Part shown: positions 18,247 to 62,929 of the stretch, one piece after another
Layout of the letters: each line of letters opens with the position of its first letter
Position numbering within the stretch: the first letter of the stretch is position 1
DNA from: Octopus sinensis
Taxonomy: Eukaryota
Reading direction: 5' to 3'
NCBI RefSeq assembly: GCF_006345805.1
Contig: NC_043002.1
Coordinates: forward strand, 71,176,001 to 71,240,000
DNA length: 64,000 nucleotides
Notes under the pieces: generated by a model
What the model was told of the DNA's origin: nothing
Seen by the model: only the letters and a program-made list of their open reading frames with translations
Databases searched by the model: none
Position numbers and translations under genes: made by a program

Positions 18247-18430
18247 GAGAACTACAAATTAAATCACGTTAAAACGTGGTACAAATAAAACTAGAATAAA
18301 TAGATATAAATATGTATTTTATCTATGAAAATACATTTTAGCTTATAGAAGAAAAAATAACAAACTATAGTATATCATTACTGGAAAATTCAAATACAAG
18401 AAATTAAAGGAAAATATTTAAAACAATATA

Positions 18431-18503
<73 letters not shown>

Positions 18504-18843
18504 TATATATATAATATATATATATAATATGAGGGAGTATGGATCCAAACTTACAGGAAAAAATTAGATTTAGGATTAACTCAAACTTCACAGTATAAAT
18601 ATATAAAATATGAATTACTGATAAAACCACTATTAGGCAACTCAAACAGTGATAGACATAAACCAATACATAAATAACAAATAATATAATATAATATATA
18701 TATAATATAATTAATATAATAATATAATATATATAATATAATTAATATAATATATATAATATAAAATTTAAATATTTTAAATTTTAAAGAAAATGTTAAC
18801 CAAAAAGTATAAAAAGAATGATAAATATAATATAATAAGTAAG

Positions 18844-18951
18844 ATCACTACGTACGTTTCATGGCTATAATTAAATTTGAATTACAATTAAGTTTAAATT
18901 CAATTGAAATACTTTCGAATTAAAATTATAGTCAATCTTCAGGTTAATGAT
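18844..18951 (-). ncRNA. Type I hammerhead ribozyme motif in Penelope repeat, copy 1
   Basis: Minus strand: atcattaac CTGAAGA ttgactataatt...aattatagccat GAAA cgtacg TA gtgat. Stem III is palindromic, stem II is long, stem I is short and bulged. Confidence 0.7.
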
Positions 18952-19269
18952 AATAGTTAAATAAATAAGCAAGTAGAGTTAAACAATATTTTTAAAGAAA
19001 TAAATAAAATAATAATTTTTCTTAGAAGAAAATTTTTCCATGTTCTATTTGATGATATTTATGAGTTAATGACTTCACAAGTAGAAAAAAAAGGGGAGTT
19101 AATTGGTTATTGTTATTGTTGTGGGCAAGGGAGATAACTGTTCAGTTTTCGGTAAGGGGAGGGGAATACATGTACAGACAAAAAAGGTTTCGAAAAAATT
19201 TGTTAGTGAGGGGATTTATGTACAGTGATGTAATCGTGATTTGAAATATGTAAAAGGATAAAAGTTAGT

Positions 19270-19765
19270 TATGCGTGCATATTAAGACGTGTTCTGTATT
19301 TTTCATTGAAAAAAGTTTACTTAAACGTTCTTGTGGAGAGATTGTTTATTTGCACTGGTGGAAGGCGAAGACTGTGAAATTTGGTTTGATATTATCTGCA
19401 AATTTGTCTATATGTTCACTGAGAGTAATTTGCCTGTATTGCTGGAAACGGATTTGCTCTTTATATAGAGTAGTTCTCCTTCTCAAGGTCATACTCGTCT
19501 ATCCAATATTGCTGTGTCCGCAACCCGAGCAGGTTATTACATACATCAGGTTCTCAGAGGTACAAGTGAAACTAGTTTTAATTGTGAACATTTGAACTTG
19601 TTTGAAAAGGAAATCCAAGCCTTCAGGTAGGTTGGAGCAGCTTCCACAGTTTGGGCGTCCACATTTTTCAACCGTTGGTTTCGTGGTTGTTTTGTAAAGA
19701 TTCGCATTTGGTAGTAATCTCTTTAATGTCTTTAATAATTTGTCTTGTATTTTGCAAACTACCAC
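19270..19765 (-). pseudogene. Penelope-type GIY-YIG endonuclease fragment, copy 2
   Basis: KCGRPNCGSC...FTCTSENLMYVITCSGCGHSNIG*TSMTLRRRTTLYKEQI...LSEH. This matches the PLE Cys linker followed by the 'VIY.I.C..C...YIGET...R' pattern, with in-frame stops. Confidence 0.85.
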
Positions 19766-19949
19766 GAGAACTACAAATTAAATCACGTTAAAACGTGGTA
19801 CAAATAAAACTAGAATAAATAGATATAAATATGTATTTTATCTATGAAAATACATTTTAGCTTATAGAAGAAAAAATAACAAACTATAGTATATCATTAC
19901 TGGAAAATTCAAATACAAGAAATTAAAGGAAAATATTTAAAACAATATA

Positions 19950-20001
<52 letters not shown>

Positions 20002-20320
20002 AATATGAGGGAGTATGGATCCAAACTTACAGGAAAAAATTAGATTTAGGATTAACTCAAACTTCACAGTATAAATATATAAAATATGAATTACTGATAA
20101 AACCACTATTAGGCAACTCAAACAGTGATAGACATAAACCAATACATAAATAACAAATAATATAATATAATATATATAATATAATATATATAATATATAT
20201 ATATAATATATATATATAATAATATAATATATATAATATAAAATTTAAATATTTTAAATTTTAAAGAAAATGTTAACCAAAAAGTATAAAAAGAATGATA
20301 AATATAATATAATAAGTAAG

Positions 20321-20428
20321 ATCACTACGTACGTTTCATGGCTATAATTAAATTTGAATTACAATTAAGTTTAAATTCAATTGAAATACTTTCGAATTAA
20401 AATTATAGTCAATCTTCAGGTTAATGAT
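20321..20428 (-). ncRNA. Type I hammerhead ribozyme motif in Penelope repeat, copy 2
   Basis: Same sequence as 18844-18951. Confidence 0.7.
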
Positions 20429-20914
20429 AATAGTTAAATAAATAAGCAAGTAGAGTTAAACAATATTTTTAAAGAAATAAATAAAATAATAATTTTTCTT
20501 AGAAGAAAACTCCATTATTTAAATTAGAAATTTAAAACATCAGTATTATGTCATACAACTCATTTATTATGTTAGGTATTTATTTTAAGGTAAATAAATA
20601 CATAGAAATATGTATTTATCTATGAAGAAATAATATGGCTTGAAAAAACATAATAAACTCACGAATATATATATATATATATATATATAATTAATCAATA
20701 TAGGGTGGCAAAAAATTTCGTAGAATTTATTTGCCACCAGCGGCCTAGTGGGAAAAAAATAAATAGTCATAGACCATTTATAAGTTCAACATCACAATCA
20801 AGGAATGGCCATAATAGGCCATTCACCCACTAGAAATAACAGCCAAAGTTTCAACCGCAAAATAACATCAATTCCGCAAACCAGGAGAAAATTTAAAAAA
20901 CATTTACACTGTAA

Positions 20915-21019
20915 TTTCTTATACGATGCACCGTTTCATCTATTGTTTAATGGTAAACCAACCTGATTAAATTAAATCAAGCCAATCTTCCATAGGCCGA
21001 TAGATTCGTCAGTAAGAAA
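20915..21019 (-). ncRNA. Type I hammerhead ribozyme, array copy 1
   Basis: Minus strand: tttctta CTGACGA atctat[56 nt]atagat GAAA cggtgcatcg TA^taagaaa. The full conserved core is present with a GUA cleavage triplet. Predicted cut lies between 20922 and 20921. Confidence 0.92.
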
Positions 21020-21395
21020 CAGCCAGATCCGAGCAGATATTATCACGAGGCACCTCTATCCCTGCCTCGGCAATATCTGACCTAAAATTTTCAAATCATC
21101 GCACTCGCGCCAAATTTATCGGCAGCAAATATAAGCCGCCGATTCCATTACGGAATTAACCAGAAAATTCATAATTAATCAATATAGGGTGGCAAAACAT
21201 TCGTAGAATTATTTGCCCCCAGCGGCCTAGTGGGAAAAATTAAAATAGTCATAGACCATTTATAAGTTCAACATCACAATCAAGAATGGCCATAATAGGC
21301 CATTCACCCACTAGAAATAACAGCCAAAGCTTCAACCGCAAAATAACATCAATTCCGCAAACCAGGAGAAAATTAAAAAAACATTTACCCTGTAA

Positions 21396-21500
21396 TTTCT
21401 TATACGATGCACCGTTTCATCTATTGTTTAATGGTAAACTAACCTGATTAAATTAAATCAAGCTAATCTTCCATAGGCCGATAGATTCGTCAGTAAGAAA
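21396..21500 (-). ncRNA. Type I hammerhead ribozyme, array copy 2
   Basis: Same intact core and stems as copy 1. Confidence 0.92.
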
Positions 21501-21877
21501 CAGCCAGATCCGAGCAGATATTATCACGAGGCACCTCTATCCCTGCCTCGGCAATATCTGACCTAAAAGTTTCAAATCATCGCACTCGCGCCAAATTTAT
21601 CGGCAGCAAATATAAGCCGCCGATTCCATTACGGAATTAACCCAAAATTCATAATTAATCAATATAGGGTGGCAAAAAATTTCGTAGAATTATTTGCCAC
21701 CAGCGGCCTAGTGGAAAAAATTAAATAGTCATTGACCATTTATAAGTTCAGCATCACAATCAAGGAATGGCCATAATAGGCCATTCACCCACTAGAAATA
21801 ACAGCCAAAGCTTCAACCGCAAAATAACATTAATTCCGCAAACCAGGAGAAAATTAAAAAAAACATTTACCCTGTAA

Positions 21878-21983
21878 TTTCTTATACGATGCACCGTCTC
21901 ATCTATTGTTTAATGGGTAACTAAACCTGATTAAATTAAATCAAGCTAATCTTCCATAGGCCGATAGATTCGTCAGTAAGAAA
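21878..21983 (-). ncRNA. Type I hammerhead ribozyme, array copy 3 (core mutant GAAA>GAGA)
   Basis: Plus strand reads gcaccgtctc instead of gcaccgtttc at 21898, which is A14G in the core. Confidence 0.8.
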
Positions 21984-22363
21984 CAGCCAGATCCGAGCAG
22001 ATATTATCACGAGGCACCTCTATCCCTGCCTCGGCAATATCTGACCTAAAATTTTCAAATCATCGCACTCGCGCCAAATTTATCGGCAGCAAATATAAGC
22101 CGCCGATTCCATTACGGAATTAACCAGAAAATTCATAATTAATCAATATAGGGTGGCAAAACATTTCGTAGAATTTATTTGCCACCAGCGGCCTAGTGGG
22201 AAAAAATTAAATAGTCATAGACCATTTATAAGTTCAACATCACAATCAAGGAATGGCCATAATAGGCCATTCACCCACTAGAAATAACAGCCAAAGCTTC
22301 AACCGCAAAATAACATCAATTCCGCAAACCAGGAGAAAATTAAAAAAAACATTTACCCTGTAA

Positions 22364-22468
22364 TTTCTTATACGATGCACCGTTTCATCTATTGTTTAAT
22401 GGAAAACTAACCTGATTAAATTAAATCAAGCCAATCTTCCATAGGCCGATAGATTCGTCAGTAAGAAA
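22364..22468 (-). ncRNA. Type I hammerhead ribozyme, array copy 4
   Basis: Intact CTGACGA / GAAA / GTA core and stems I-III. Confidence 0.92.
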
Positions 22469-22847
22469 CAGCCAGATCCGAGCAGATATTATCACGAGGC
22501 ACCTCTATCCCTGCCTCGGCAATATCTGACCTAAAATTTTCAAATCATCGCACTCGCGCCAAATTTATCGGCAGCAAATATAAGCCACCGATTCCATTAC
22601 GGAATTAACCAGAAAATTCATAATTAATCAATATAGGGTGGCAAAAAATTTCGTAGAATTTATTTGCCACCAGCGGCCTAGTGGGAAAAAATTAAATAGT
22701 CATAGACCATTTATAAGTTCAACATCACAATCAAGGAATGGCCATAATAGGCCATTCACCCACTAGAAATAACAGCCAAAGCTTCAACCGCAAAATAACA
22801 TCAATTCCGCAAACCAGGAGAAAATTAAAAAAACATTTACCCTGTAA

Positions 22848-22951
22848 TTTCTTATACGATGCACCGTTTCATCTATTGTTTAATGGTAAACTAACCTGAT
22901 AAATTAAATCAAGCCAATCTTCCATAGGCCGATAGATTCGTCAGTAAGAAA
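22848..22951 (-). ncRNA. Type I hammerhead ribozyme, array copy 5
   Basis: Intact core, with a 1-nt deletion at the distal tip of stem II. Confidence 0.92.
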
Positions 22952-23328
22952 CAGCCAGATCCGAGATATTATCACGAGGCACCTCTATCCCTGCCTCGGC
23001 AATATCTGACCTAAAATTTTCAAATCATCGCACTCGCGCCAAATTTATCGGCAGCAAATATAAGCCGCCGATTCCATTACGGAATTAACCAGAAAATTCA
23101 TAATTAATCAATATAGGGTGGCAAAAAATTTCGTAGAATTTATTTGCCACCAGCGGCCTAGTGGGAAAAAATTAAATAGTCATAGACCATTTATAAGTTC
23201 AACATCACAATCAAGGAATGGCCATAATAGGCCATTCACCCACTAGAAATAACAGCCAAAGCTTCAACCGCAAAATAACATCAATTCCGCAAACCAGGAG
23301 AAAATTTAAAAAAACATTTACCCTGTAA

Positions 23329-23433
23329 TTTCTTATACGATGCACCGTTTCATCTATTGTTTAATGGTAAACTAACCTGATTAAATTAAATCAAGCCAAT
23401 CTTCCATAGGCCGATAGATTCGTCAGTAAGAAA
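23329..23433 (-). ncRNA. Type I hammerhead ribozyme, array copy 6
   Basis: Intact core and stems. A seventh copy at 23813-23849 is truncated. Confidence 0.92.
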
Positions 23434-23843
23434 CAGCCAGATCCGAGCAGATATTATCACGAGGCACCTCTATCCCTGCCTCGGCAATATCTGACCTAAA
23501 ATTTTCAAATCATCGCACTCGCGCCAAATTTATCGGCAGCAAATATAAGCCGCCGATTCCATTACGGAATTAACCAGAAAATTCATAATTAATCAATATA
23601 GGGTGGCAAAAAATTTCGTAGAATTTATTTGCCACCAGCGGCCTAGTGGGAAAAAATTAAATAGTCATAGACCATTTATAAGTTCAACATCACAATCAAG
23701 GAATGGCCATAATAGGCCATTCACCCACTAGAAATAACAGCCAAAGCTTCAACCGCAAAATAACATCAATTCCGCAAACCAGGAGAAAATTAAAAAAACA
23801 TTTACCCTGTAATTTCTTATACGATGCACCGTTTCATCTATTG

Positions 23844-23892
<49 letters not shown>

Positions 23893-45949: not shown

Positions 45950-46740
45950 ACTCTTTTTCTTATTTCAGTCATTTGACTGCGACCGTGCTGGAGCAGCATC
46001 TTGGGGGGCGGGATTGAACCAACAAATCGATGTCGGGACTTAGTTTGTAAACCTAGTATTTATTCTCTCATTTTCTTTTGCTGAACCGTAAGTTACGGGG
46101 CCGCAAACACATCAAGACCGATTGTCAAGCGGTGATGAGGGCAAACACAGACTCAAAATGCACACACACATAGATGTATACATATATATCACAAGTCTAT
46201 AGTCGTCCCGAGATTATAGTTGAAAACTCTCACCTAAGATGCCACGCAGTGGGACTGAACCCGGACCATGTGGATGTGAAACAAGCTTTTTTATCACACA
46301 GTCACGCCTGTCTTCCTATAATAAATATACACATACACGCATATTTATTATTGTATTCCTTTACTTGTTTCAATCATTTGGTTGCGGCCATGCTGGAGTA
46401 CCGCCTTTAGTCGAACAAATTAACTCCAGGACACTTATTAATTTTGTAATCCTAGTACATATTCTGTCGGTGTCTTGGGCCGAACCGCTTATTGGGACGT
46501 AAACACACAGACATGGTTGTCAAGCAATGAAGGAGCACAAACACAGACACACAGAAATATACATATATATATGCTCGATGGGCTTCTCTCAGTTTCCATC
46601 TACCAAATCTACTCACAAGGCTTTGATTGGCCCGAGGCTATAGCAGAAGTCACCTGCCCAATATACCACATAGTGGGACTGAACTCGGAACCATATGGTC
46701 GGGAAACAAGCTTCTTATCACACAACCACTCATGCGCCTA
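45950..46740 (-). mobile_element. Two tandem family A SINE copies
   Basis: Copies at ~45950-46310 and ~46355-46740, each with tail, core and head motifs. Confidence 0.8.
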
Positions 46741-46775: not shown

Positions 46776-46982
<207 letters not shown>

Positions 46983-47591
46983 TGGAGTTAATTTGTTCGA
47001 CTAAAGGCGGTACTCCAGCATGGCGGCAACCAAATGATTGAAACAAGTAAAGGAATACAATAATAAATATGCGTGTATGTGTATAAAATAACCTTTGCAC
47101 TTGATTTTTTAATGTTTTTTCCCCCATACTTTTGTGAATTAGTTTAGGCAAACACTATCTGAGAGAGATCTTCTTTAAGTATTAGAAATAGCTGAAGAAA
47201 TTTCTTTAGCTGCTATTTCTAATGAGTTCAGTATGTGGCAAAGTAATTTATTTTACTAAGCCCTTATATATAATGTAATATTTTGAATTCGCCTATAATG
47301 GTCCCTTTACATACTGAATACTTGGTGAAATTGATTAATAATTAATTAATTTTACCCTCAATTGTTGAAATTATAATTCATCTTTCTCTGTAAAATGCTG
47401 CGGTTTTCACCGTTAATACATGGTGTTTGTCAATTTTAACCCACGCTGGTGGAAAGGGGAAAGCAGAAATTCTTCGCTTGCATATTCGAATTTGATAGCA
47501 CTTTTAGTTCGAGCAGAATTCTAGAGGTGATTAGAAGCCGAAAGGGTATGCTCCCGACTTTCAGTGTTCCCAAATCCGATCCAAGGAATTC

Positions 47592-47643
47592 TGAGCTGAA
47601 GAAAGAAATGTCGAATTGACTAATCTAGAAACGTACGTTCTCA
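47592..47643 (+). ncRNA. Minimal type I hammerhead motif, 556-bp array copy 1
   Basis: tgag CTGAAGA aagaaatgtc gaatt gactaatcta GAAA cgtacg TT^ctca. Core and palindromic stem III are intact. Stem II has several mismatches. Confidence 0.7.
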
Positions 47644-48147
47644 AATAACCTTTGCACTTGATTTTTTAATGTTTTTTCCCCCATACTTTTGTGAATTAGT
47701 TAGGCAAACACTATCTGAGAGAGATCTTCTTTAAGTATTAGAAATAGCTGAAGAAATTTCTTTAGCTGCTATTTCTAATGAGTTCAGTATGTGGCAAAGT
47801 AATTTATTTTACTAAGCCCTTATATATAATGTAATATTTTGAATTCGCCTATAATGGTCCCTTTACATACTGAATACTTGGTGAAATTGATTAATAATTA
47901 ATTAATTTTACCCTCAATTGTTGAAATTATAATTCATCTTTCTCTGTAAAATGCTGCGGTTTTCACCGTTAATACATGGTGTTTGTCAATTTTAACCCAC
48001 GCTGGTGGAAAGGGGAAAGCAGAAATTCTTCGCTTGCATATTCGAATTTGATAGCACTTTTAGTTCGAGCAGAATTCTAGAGGTGATTAGAAGCCGAAAG
48101 GGTATGCTCCCGACTTTCAGTGTTCCCAAATCCGATTCAAGGAATTC

Positions 48148-48199
48148 TGAGCTGAAGAAAGAAATGTCGAATTGACTAATCTAGAAACGTACGTTCTCA
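48148..48199 (+). ncRNA. Minimal type I hammerhead motif, 556-bp array copy 2
   Basis: Same sequence as 47592-47643. Confidence 0.7.
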
Positions 48200-48479
48200 A
48201 ATAACCTTTGCACTTGATTTTTTAATGTTTTTTCCCCCATACTTTTGTGAATTAGTTTAGGCAAACACTATCTGAGAGAGATCTTCTTTAAGTATTAGAA
48301 ATAGCTGAAGAAATTTCTTTAGCTGCTATTTCTAATGAGTTCAGTATGTGGCAAAGTATTTATTTTACTAAGCCCTTATATATAATGTAATATTTTGAAT
48401 TCGCCTATAATGGTCCCTTTACATACTGAATACTTGGTGAAATTGATTAATAATTAATTAATTTTACCCTCAATTGTTG

Positions 48480-48515
<36 letters not shown>

Positions 48516-49031
48516 CTATTTATAGACGTAAATAGTGTGGAAGTCAATGCTTTCTTGCAATAATTCAAAAATCCAGACTAGACCAACTTTCTGTAACGCT
48601 GCAAAGCTGAGCGTTAAACTTAGCGTGTATGTGTGTATATGTATATGAGTGTACATATGAATATATATAGATATATATGTCTGTGTGCACGTTTATGTAA
48701 AGGATTGTACGCGTGTACGTTGATGTGCATATGCGTAAGTGTATGCATTTGTGTATTATGTATAGAAAATCTCGTACACCTATATTTCCAGGTGATTCTT
48801 TAAAGACAACTTATCCTAGAGAGAAACATTCATTTTAAGCATAGTACACTAATGCTGAATAAATCGATAAATATTCAAAAAATCGATACGCATTTTCATA
48901 ATGTCTAAATACAAAAATTATTTTAAATTTACATGACTTTCACTTACTTTTTCCATAAGCAGCTATTTCCATTCGCGTGTACATGAGTATATGCATATAT
49001 ACAAATACACACAAACAAGGTGTATGTATAT

Positions 49032-61346: not shown

Positions 61347-62929
61347 CTTGAAAAGTAGGTTGCTCTAAAGTAGAGAGCCATGCCCATATGTGTTAGAAAG
61401 ATCGCTTGATCTCTTCCGTCCTGGTCAAGGGGAGTGCTAACCGTCTCTCCTTTTTTGCAACGCTCTTTGTAATTTAATGGCAAACGAAGAATGCATTTGT
61501 GCCAGATGTAACATGTTAAGTCATGGACTTAAGAATGATATTATACTGCAGTAAACAAATATGAGAAATACAGGAATAATAAAGCTTTTAATAAAAGGAT
61601 TAAACCTCATGTAGTTATGTCTTCTATATAACATGTTAGGAAAAAAAACTTGCCGCACATATAAAATACGTATAGTGATATAGTTCTATATTTAAGACAT
61701 GAGGAATTATGTACATTATTTACATTCGACGAATATTTGTCCCCATCTTGATTGTTGTTAACACAACCTTTCTGCTGATATACCCTCCAGCCTTCTTCAG
61801 GTGTCCTGGGGAAATTTCGAACCTGGTTTCTCATTCCTAAAGTATTTTTCAATGCTATAATAATAATAATAATTATAATAAGTATTATTATTATTATTAT
61901 TATTGTTGTTGTTGTTGTTCAAGTCACTGCTTGGAATCGAACTCGTAATCTTGGGGTTAGTAACCCGCGCTCTTAACCACTACGCCACATGCCTGTGGAT
62001 GTATAATGACATATTTCGTTTGTGTATGTTCCTATATGTGGCTGTGTCTGTGTGCATTCGAATTACGTGTGGTACCGAACAGTTTCCATTTGGTGTATTT
62101 TATTTGCCAAATGACCAGAGTTTACGGCAGAAAATATTTGCTTAAATGCCGCACAGGGCAATTGACAAATAAAATTACATGGCTCTAAAATAACTTGCTT
62201 ACCACAGTGCCACTTCTGTTGACATGTGCATTGTTGTCTGTACGTTCATTTAATAATTCTTTAACATTGTATAGTGGGAGTATAATTAAGAGTCTGTACC
62301 GTTAGTTTATTATTCATAATTTAATGCAATTCCTACTTTACATATGCATCAACTTCTGTAAATATTTTGCTTTATCCTCAAGAGAATATGAAAAACAAAA
62401 CGCTGTAGAAAGTTTGCAAATTTTACATCAGTTATTTAACGTTTAGACATAACTTAGATACAACTACAATTCAAGTTATACGTCAGCCATTAATTATTAA
62501 TTTGGTTAATGTAGTAATCGGTAAAAATAGTTACTCAATTTCGCAAAAGTAATGTTTATTTTCCATATACAGCATTCTATTTTTAAAGCTATACGTTCTT
62601 ACAAACTAATGTAACTATTGTTTGCTGCTTAAACGAATAAGCTGTCTGTTCTATTCTGTGCTGTAATGAAAAGTTGAATATGAACACAGTTGAATATAAC
62701 GATTAACCCTTTGATAGGGAAGGTCTGTAAGCATTAGTTCGGAAATGAAATTTGCTTGAGAGTTACAAGCTCAGATCCAAAACGTTTTTAAGAACAGTCT
62801 TACCGTTTTTTTAAAATTATTTATATGTTTTTTCTTTGTTTTTTAAGGAGAAACCTAGCTTCAAGCTACTTTTTTCAGGTCAATTTTTACGCACCCTTCT
62901 AAACCTCAGAAAAATAAGAAACTTAGAAA

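Follow-up and report, generated by a model that had tools for sequence, protein, structure and literature searches.

A tandem repeat that begins only 3 nt away from the predicted cleavage site of its own hammerhead motif raises the question of whether the ribozyme made this end, or whether the repeat reached its genomic position in another way. Such an array starts at position 47086 of the window (the whole 64-kb stretch of DNA analyzed here). The initial annotation described it as 2.5 near-identical units of 556 bp, and this was borne out by self-comparison (99.5% identity across 847 bp). Unit starts at 47086, 47643 and 48199 define lengths of 557 and 556 bp, followed by 289 bp up to position 48487. 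Unit coordinates are counted from the base that directly follows the predicted cut (base 1 = window 47640); on this scale the array does begin at +4, as had been noted, and its junction is blunt. The GC content of the array is about 0.3, and it contains no ATG-initiated ORF of 50 aa.

Anatomy of the insertion

To the left of 47086 there is no target DNA but an inverted filler followed by an inverted arm, a point that the initial annotation had passed over. The complete insertion thus comprises two head-to-head arms plus filler, 1.6 kb in all, embedded in a (TA)n run:

46326..46429, + strand: source of the filler, within an interspersed repeat 430 bp to the left of the insertion
46777..46860, no strand: (TA)n run, inferred left half of the target site
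46861..46982, - strand: inverted 5'-truncated arm of 122 nt, unit 78 to about 191-198, 96.7% identical to the array
46982..47085, - strand: filler, a 104-nt inverted copy of 46326-46429 (103/104 identical, 99.0%) that bridges the 5' ends of both arms
47086..47642, + strand: unit 1, first base at +4 past the predicted cut
47592..47643, + strand: type I hammerhead 1, predicted cut after 47639 (GUU)
47643..48198, + strand: unit 2, 556 bp, with site A at about 47830 and site B at about 47931
48148..48199, + strand: type I hammerhead 2, core at 48152, predicted cut after 48195
48199..48487, + strand: partial unit 3, which stops within (TA)n at site B (unit 288-292)
48488..48524, no strand: (TA)n run, inferred right half of the target site

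The 3' end of the inverted arm corresponds to site A and adjoins (TA)n. The array is thus the longer of the two arms, and its 5' end is a junction inside the insertion. Fillers of at least 12 nt were found seven times in the sample of copies described below, and only that of the window copy (46982-47085) matches its own flank. The region from 46806 back to 45949 holds two nested interspersed repeats with many copies of 65-80% in the window; one of them is the source of the filler.

Two fixed 3' ends and their pairing

A 23-mer from the unit (positions 4-26) has 910 exact matches on many contigs of the 2.72-Gb genome, and the repeat is hence a dispersed multicopy family. We scored 38 of 1374 candidate loci, a selection biased towards young copies. 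To these we added contig C1, of whose 44 clusters the first 40 were analyzed. With the duplicates L061 and L035 and all segments below 80% identity left out, 76 loci remained, whose flanks revealed no more duplicates.

The 3' ends of this family are fixed. Among 133 of them, 62 lie at site A (unit 186-201, mostly 191), 60 at site B (288-298) and 11 elsewhere, with the two sites about 100 nt apart, and (TA)n is found next to 124. Both sites contain TATA; another TATA, at unit 211, rarely serves as an end. Forty-nine of the 76 loci are arranged head to head, 24 are single-armed (12 A, 12 B) and three are complex. The head-to-head loci follow a near-strict rule: 41 combine one A end with one B end (AB), none is AA, none is BB, and eight have another end. 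When 23 single-arm loci were rechecked for hidden short second arms, one clear case emerged (L071), which added an AA insertion whose second arm measures 19 nt; 10-nt matches in L063 and L077 are too short to count. New loci were then drawn from junction patterns (34, with eight overlapping or repeated ones skipped). Both ends were present in 19 of them: 17 AB (16 by script and L230 by eye), one AA with a 45-nt arm, no BB, and one other. Against a 50:50 expectation, the excess of AB has p=1e-11 in the first set and p=7e-5 in the new loci.

A (TA)n run is symmetrical, and nothing distinguishes the two ends of a break in it, so that AA plus BB should account for half of the insertions if the two events were independent. 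Strict pairing of A with B at such a target would therefore have to be imposed by one ribonucleoprotein. The two arms of an insertion also share a haplotype; minor alleles are common to both at 41 of 44 informative sites in 30 loci, compared to a mean of 12% and a maximum of 34% after shuffling. Target-site duplications, which in retrozymes exceed 4 bp when present, are unreadable because the targets consist of (TA)n.

Proposed priming at both ends of one break

We consider it likely that the repeat is a young, non-coding and non-autonomous Penelope-type retroelement (a non-LTR retrozyme) that is primed at both ends of a single break. A putative Penelope-like RT/GIY-YIG protein would bind the repeat RNA and make a double-strand cut in a (TA)n run. 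Each DNA end would then prime synthesis at an internal position of the RNA, with site A (about 191) used by one end and site B (about 292) by its partner, and one ribonucleoprotein holding both ends would enforce the A-plus-B pairing. The cDNAs would run towards the 5' side of the RNA, straight through intact hammerheads, and stop at random places, whereupon the two would be joined head to head, mostly via the 1-6 nt overlaps by which the arms are seen to be connected; the window copy would have gained its piece of flanking DNA between them at this step.

In vitro work on an Anolis element (PMC11167929) describes cutting and extension of both strands, initiation of reverse transcription at two internal sites that match the tail, a hammerhead that is dispensable for insertion, and a protein predicted to be a dimer. 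In bulk, however, the two strands did not differ in their start sites in that system (PMC11167929), which counts against the two-ended scheme. So do the 24 one-armed and three complex loci among the 76, the two AA cases found in all, and the tails of coding families, which measure 36-45 nt compared to the spacing of about 100 nt seen here. With respect to the helper, no autonomous partner was found: 50 Penelope-like loci, a sample that covers few of the families in the genome, revealed no DNA similarity of the unit to the element, and where the unit does match, in L111 and L155, the match falls in sibling repeats next to the Penelope-like element. In 30 loci with the motif shared by sibling repeats (see below), no ORF was found upstream of it.

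A single priming event might also suffice if the second arm arose by fold-back or self-priming, either on the new cDNA or on antisense RNA, and the endonuclease then cut it back at the other site. Self-priming on antisense RNA has been proposed (PMC3846280), and the tail has been attributed to endonuclease-mediated resolution (PMC8557442). Such a course of events likewise predicts the shared haplotype, and it would fit the symmetrical junctions at local palindromes in L085, L083, L068, L056, L211 and L236. Most junctions are asymmetrical, however, with offsets of 0-271 nt, and a stop near site A is seen in 10 of 42 B arms compared to three of 44 A arms (a window chosen post hoc), the outcome expected from twin priming on a single RNA. 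Moreover, neither arm fits inside the other in 16 of 40 AB insertions, which excludes the simplest version, fold-back on the first cDNA. On balance, we regard derivation of both arms from one priming event as unlikely.

Distribution of the 5' ends

The initial annotation took the start of the array as indirect evidence of ribozyme activity, with a 5' end made by cleavage, and it proposed to map the 5' ends of all copies relative to the GUU site, naming random placement as the outcome that would speak against this reading. Random placement is what we found. The 133 5' ends are compatible with a uniform distribution over the unit (KS p=0.16), and the same holds for the 94 young arms alone (p=0.59). 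Three of the 133 lie within 5 nt of the cut compared to 2.6 expected, and 12 within 20 nt compared to 9.8 expected. In genome-wide junction patterns, position +1 gave a junction in three of three matches and position +4 in five of nine, the window copy included; unit position 232, a single control whose denominator is unmeasured, gave nine junctions among 30 matches.

If cDNA were copied up to a 5' end made by the hammerhead, insertions should begin at the cut, and the blunt +4 junction of the window copy, together with the three junctions at +1 and the five at +4 where a rough uniform estimate gives 1.3 per position, could be read in this way. Against this stand the control position, which with its nine junctions tops both (one control, with its denominator unmeasured), the chance-level number of ends within 5 nt, and the small share of the eight junctions at +1 and +4, which together amount to roughly 1% of the estimated total of 700 5' ends. 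In addition, the start of the array misses the cut by 3 nt and directly follows a C, at which alignments to AT-rich flanks tend to break off. As a general mechanism, a cleavage-made 5' end of the insertions is accordingly very improbable, and the start of the array beside the cut is best taken as a coincidence, although the window copy, with its blunt junction, could conceivably be an exception. RNA-mediated mobility of the hammerhead repeat, which was claimed along with it, is supported by our data.

A conserved and probably slow hammerhead

The two hammerheads possess the CUGANGA core, GAAA, an NUH triplet and stems I and III, and they are the sole matches to a strict type I pattern in the 64-kb window. 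Hammerhead 1 is composed of stem I (47592-47595/47640-47643), the core (47596-47602), stem II (47604-47626) and GAAA (47628-47631). Its stem III is a palindrome, and its stem II carries an A.A mismatch at the base as well as a 3x3 internal loop. No match of the region to the Rfam hammerhead was obtained at the gathering score or at E<=10. The paired base of stem II (G10.1-C11.1) is absent and replaced by A.A in the young subfamily (in about 99% of its copies) and by U.U in the old one. The hammerhead fold of the monomer was computed at -2.6 kcal/mol compared to an MFE of -4.5 kcal/mol, and the stem III palindrome pairs between two copies at -11.6 kcal/mol. When folded alone, the hammerhead region is not more stable than shuffled sequences (z -1.0 to +1.8); the whole 556-bp unit reaches z -4.5 against shuffles.

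Between the young subfamily and the roughly 86% subfamily, none of 38 constrained hammerhead positions differs, whereas five of the 14 free ones do, as do 59 of 500 elsewhere (p about 0.008, for substitutions only and with position classes that were taken from the canonical fold and set after the variants had been seen). Stem I covaries with that of a 603-bp sibling family, and the altered stem III palindrome of L259 is still a palindrome. This conservation indicates that the motif is under selection and more than a chance occurrence; with its weak stem II and the intercopy pairing of stem III, it is probably slow, and predicted to cut as a dimer. GUU is a weak triplet for hammerhead cleavage. 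Intact cut sites are crossed in large numbers: 110 of 133-138 arms cross at least one, 23 cross none, and the longest cross 12 and 13. Slow cleavage, which had been deduced from the mismatched stem II, is in view of these crossings, the A.A base and the computed folds a probable property of the hammerhead, and this is in line with what PMC4209133 reports on dimeric hammerheads. Its role would probably lie in making monomers or circles rather than the 5' ends of insertions.

As to the form of the template, 91 variants occur in every unit of their locus (12 of these in a single locus) and 31 are partial, in a census whose last-unit alignments carry an end artefact. Partial variants are present in both arms of C6_432, C3_209 and L048, a pattern that is not given by a single monomer circle. 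The long arrays L046, L087 and C6_432 (L008-L018) contain periodic variants with periods of 2, 5 and possibly 6, which point to multimeric templates or local duplication. Contigs of four runs (their type being a guess) cover the 556-bp unit, whose ends are not visible in them.

The same rule in other repeats of the genome

A second hammerhead repeat of the window, with units of 485 bp (20687-23849, - strand), has no similarity to the 556-bp unit. Its family likewise ends at two sites about 100 nt apart (unit 381-386 or 478-489), and 21 loci comprise 10 with mixed ends (one of them by eye, with a tiny arm), none with like ends, two with another end, one cut off and eight single-armed. The window copy itself is single-armed, with its 5' end at unit 220.

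A coding family of this genome follows suit. Penelope-like ORFs with lengths of 781-850 codons are present here and end in (TA)n. The family of L158 has two 3' ends 37 nt apart, and pairing is mixed in seven cases, like in none and other in one; among 30 loci chosen for the long end, six distinct events reveal the end of the inverted partner, short in every case, and L158 itself provides the seventh.

A motif common to the 556-bp unit and its sibling repeats has 5704 matches. The sibling hammerhead repeats (L243-L272) form a large superfamily with conserved end spacing: their 3' ends lie 32-41 or 136-143 nt past the motif, compared to 36 and 137 nt in the 556-bp family, and the siblings lack TATA there. 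Five two-armed sibling loci comprise two AB, two with A plus another end, and one unclear case. A chimera in L059 (1176-2401), in which a 556-bp arm switches at unit 412 into a long 603-bp sibling array, suggests that both families use one RT.

Several further observations concern the neighbourhood of such elements. In the 3' untranslated regions of coding Penelope-like families (L151-L154 and L162-L165), candidate minimal hammerheads of the U3-A8 type were noted by eye upstream of both 3' ends. At L177 951-1045, a short inverted arm of a Penelope-like copy precedes a telomere-like CCTTAACCC string. In the window, 18300-20510 (- strand) is a direct repeat with a period of about 1.48 kb around a broken Penelope-like GIY-YIG remnant (19346-19777, with a CxxC linker). 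Two short window fragments from 19346-19777 gave no Pfam match, and a longer relative matched RVT_1 (just under the cut-off) and GIY-YIG. The 18300-20510 repeat also bears a hammerhead-like motif that combines the same palindrome in stem III with a poor stem I; this motif lies beyond the end point of the other copies of that family. A U6atac minor-spliceosome RNA match (77.7 bits), either a gene or a retrocopy, is found at 61351-61463 (- strand).

That the insertions are DNA-level satellite or repair products, which would have entered fragile (TA)n runs through recombination or templated repair and would owe their ends to microhomology at TATA, is the least probable of the explanations considered, since the TATA at both sites of the 556-bp family, the internal periodic duplications in the long arrays L046 and L087 and the templated flank insertion of the window copy, which it would accommodate, are outweighed by the near absence of the AA and BB pairs that microhomology alone predicts, by the neglected TATA at unit 211, by sibling families that end at homologous distances without TATA, by a polarity that follows the hammerhead strand, and by coding Penelope-like copies with the same pattern.

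The A-plus-B rule holds in two unrelated hammerhead repeats and in a coding element of one genome, and it joins the question of the tail to that of the retrozyme enzyme. Because the pairing can be counted, an open mechanistic question becomes testable, with a sharp prediction for the in vitro system of PMC11167929. We see about even chances that two-ended, asymmetric priming is the rule for Penelope-type integration. One protein dimer and one RNA with two fixed sites would then serve a symmetrical (TA)n break, the tail and the head-to-head arrangement would be one phenomenon, and the RNA element of the retrozyme, which would set its own spacing of about 100 nt, would be a direct footprint of Penelope mobilization. 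Such a protein, which would copy RNA onto the two ends of a break under the guidance of an RNA element of roughly 200 nt, would also be of interest for insertion tools.

Comparison with known systems

In L1 twin priming, primings from both target ends yield an inverted 5' segment that is joined by microhomology; the first priming takes place at the poly(A) tail and the second at a variable internal site. In the repeat studied here, by contrast, both sites are internal and fixed, poly(A) is lacking, and the arms are often non-adjacent on the template.

Endonuclease-bearing Penelope-like elements (PMC8557442, PMC3846280, PMC11167929) also display 5' truncation, an inverted 5'-truncated head copy, two alternative 3' ends, (TA)n targets and a hammerhead upstream of these ends. 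Unlike them, our repeat has no ORF, and its ends are about 100 nt apart instead of 30-40. These papers treat the tail as optional or often one-ended, whereas the pairing counted here is near-strict; the origin of head-to-head insertions with a one-ended tail is declared open in PMC8557442. In the open-access literature consulted, we met neither a count of strict end pairing nor such a retrozyme footprint, and the accessible passages of PMC13282606 make no mention of hammerheads.

Dimeric hammerheads of the Penelope type and of amphibians (PMC4209133; PMC7229834) share with ours the 4-bp stem I, the 2-bp stem III and the palindromic loop for intercopy pairing. The weak U.U base of stem II in the axolotl HHR_Amex2 (PMC7229834) resembles that of the older subfamily, while the young subfamily differs from these motifs in having A.A in place of the usual G10.1-C11.1 and a GUU triplet.

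Metazoan non-LTR retrozymes (Cervera and de la Pena 2020, PMC7229834; Li, Clavereau and Pollet 2026, bioRxiv 10.64898/2026.07.22.740005) are likewise non-coding, AT-rich tandem repeats with one type I hammerhead per unit, and they too occur as dispersed short arrays of a strongly self-paired unit in hosts rich in Penelope-like elements. Our repeat carries a complete type I hammerhead in two consecutive units, is non-coding and has a GC content below 50%. Its unit of 556 bp exceeds the 150-450 bp given in PMC7229834 and lies inside the 51-972 bp given in bioRxiv 10.64898/2026.07.22.740005. In both sources, the link between retrozymes and Penelope is built on co-occurrence and terminal-repeat homology, and the enzyme that moves animal retrozymes is still a hypothesis; terminal-repeat homology to an autonomous element was not found here in the loci sampled. 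Fixed 3' ends, head-to-head arms and a tail are not described in the accessible parts of these two reports. As a retrozyme-type repeat, the element itself belongs to a known kind, and what stands out against these systems is the near-strict A-plus-B pairing with its 100-nt spacing.
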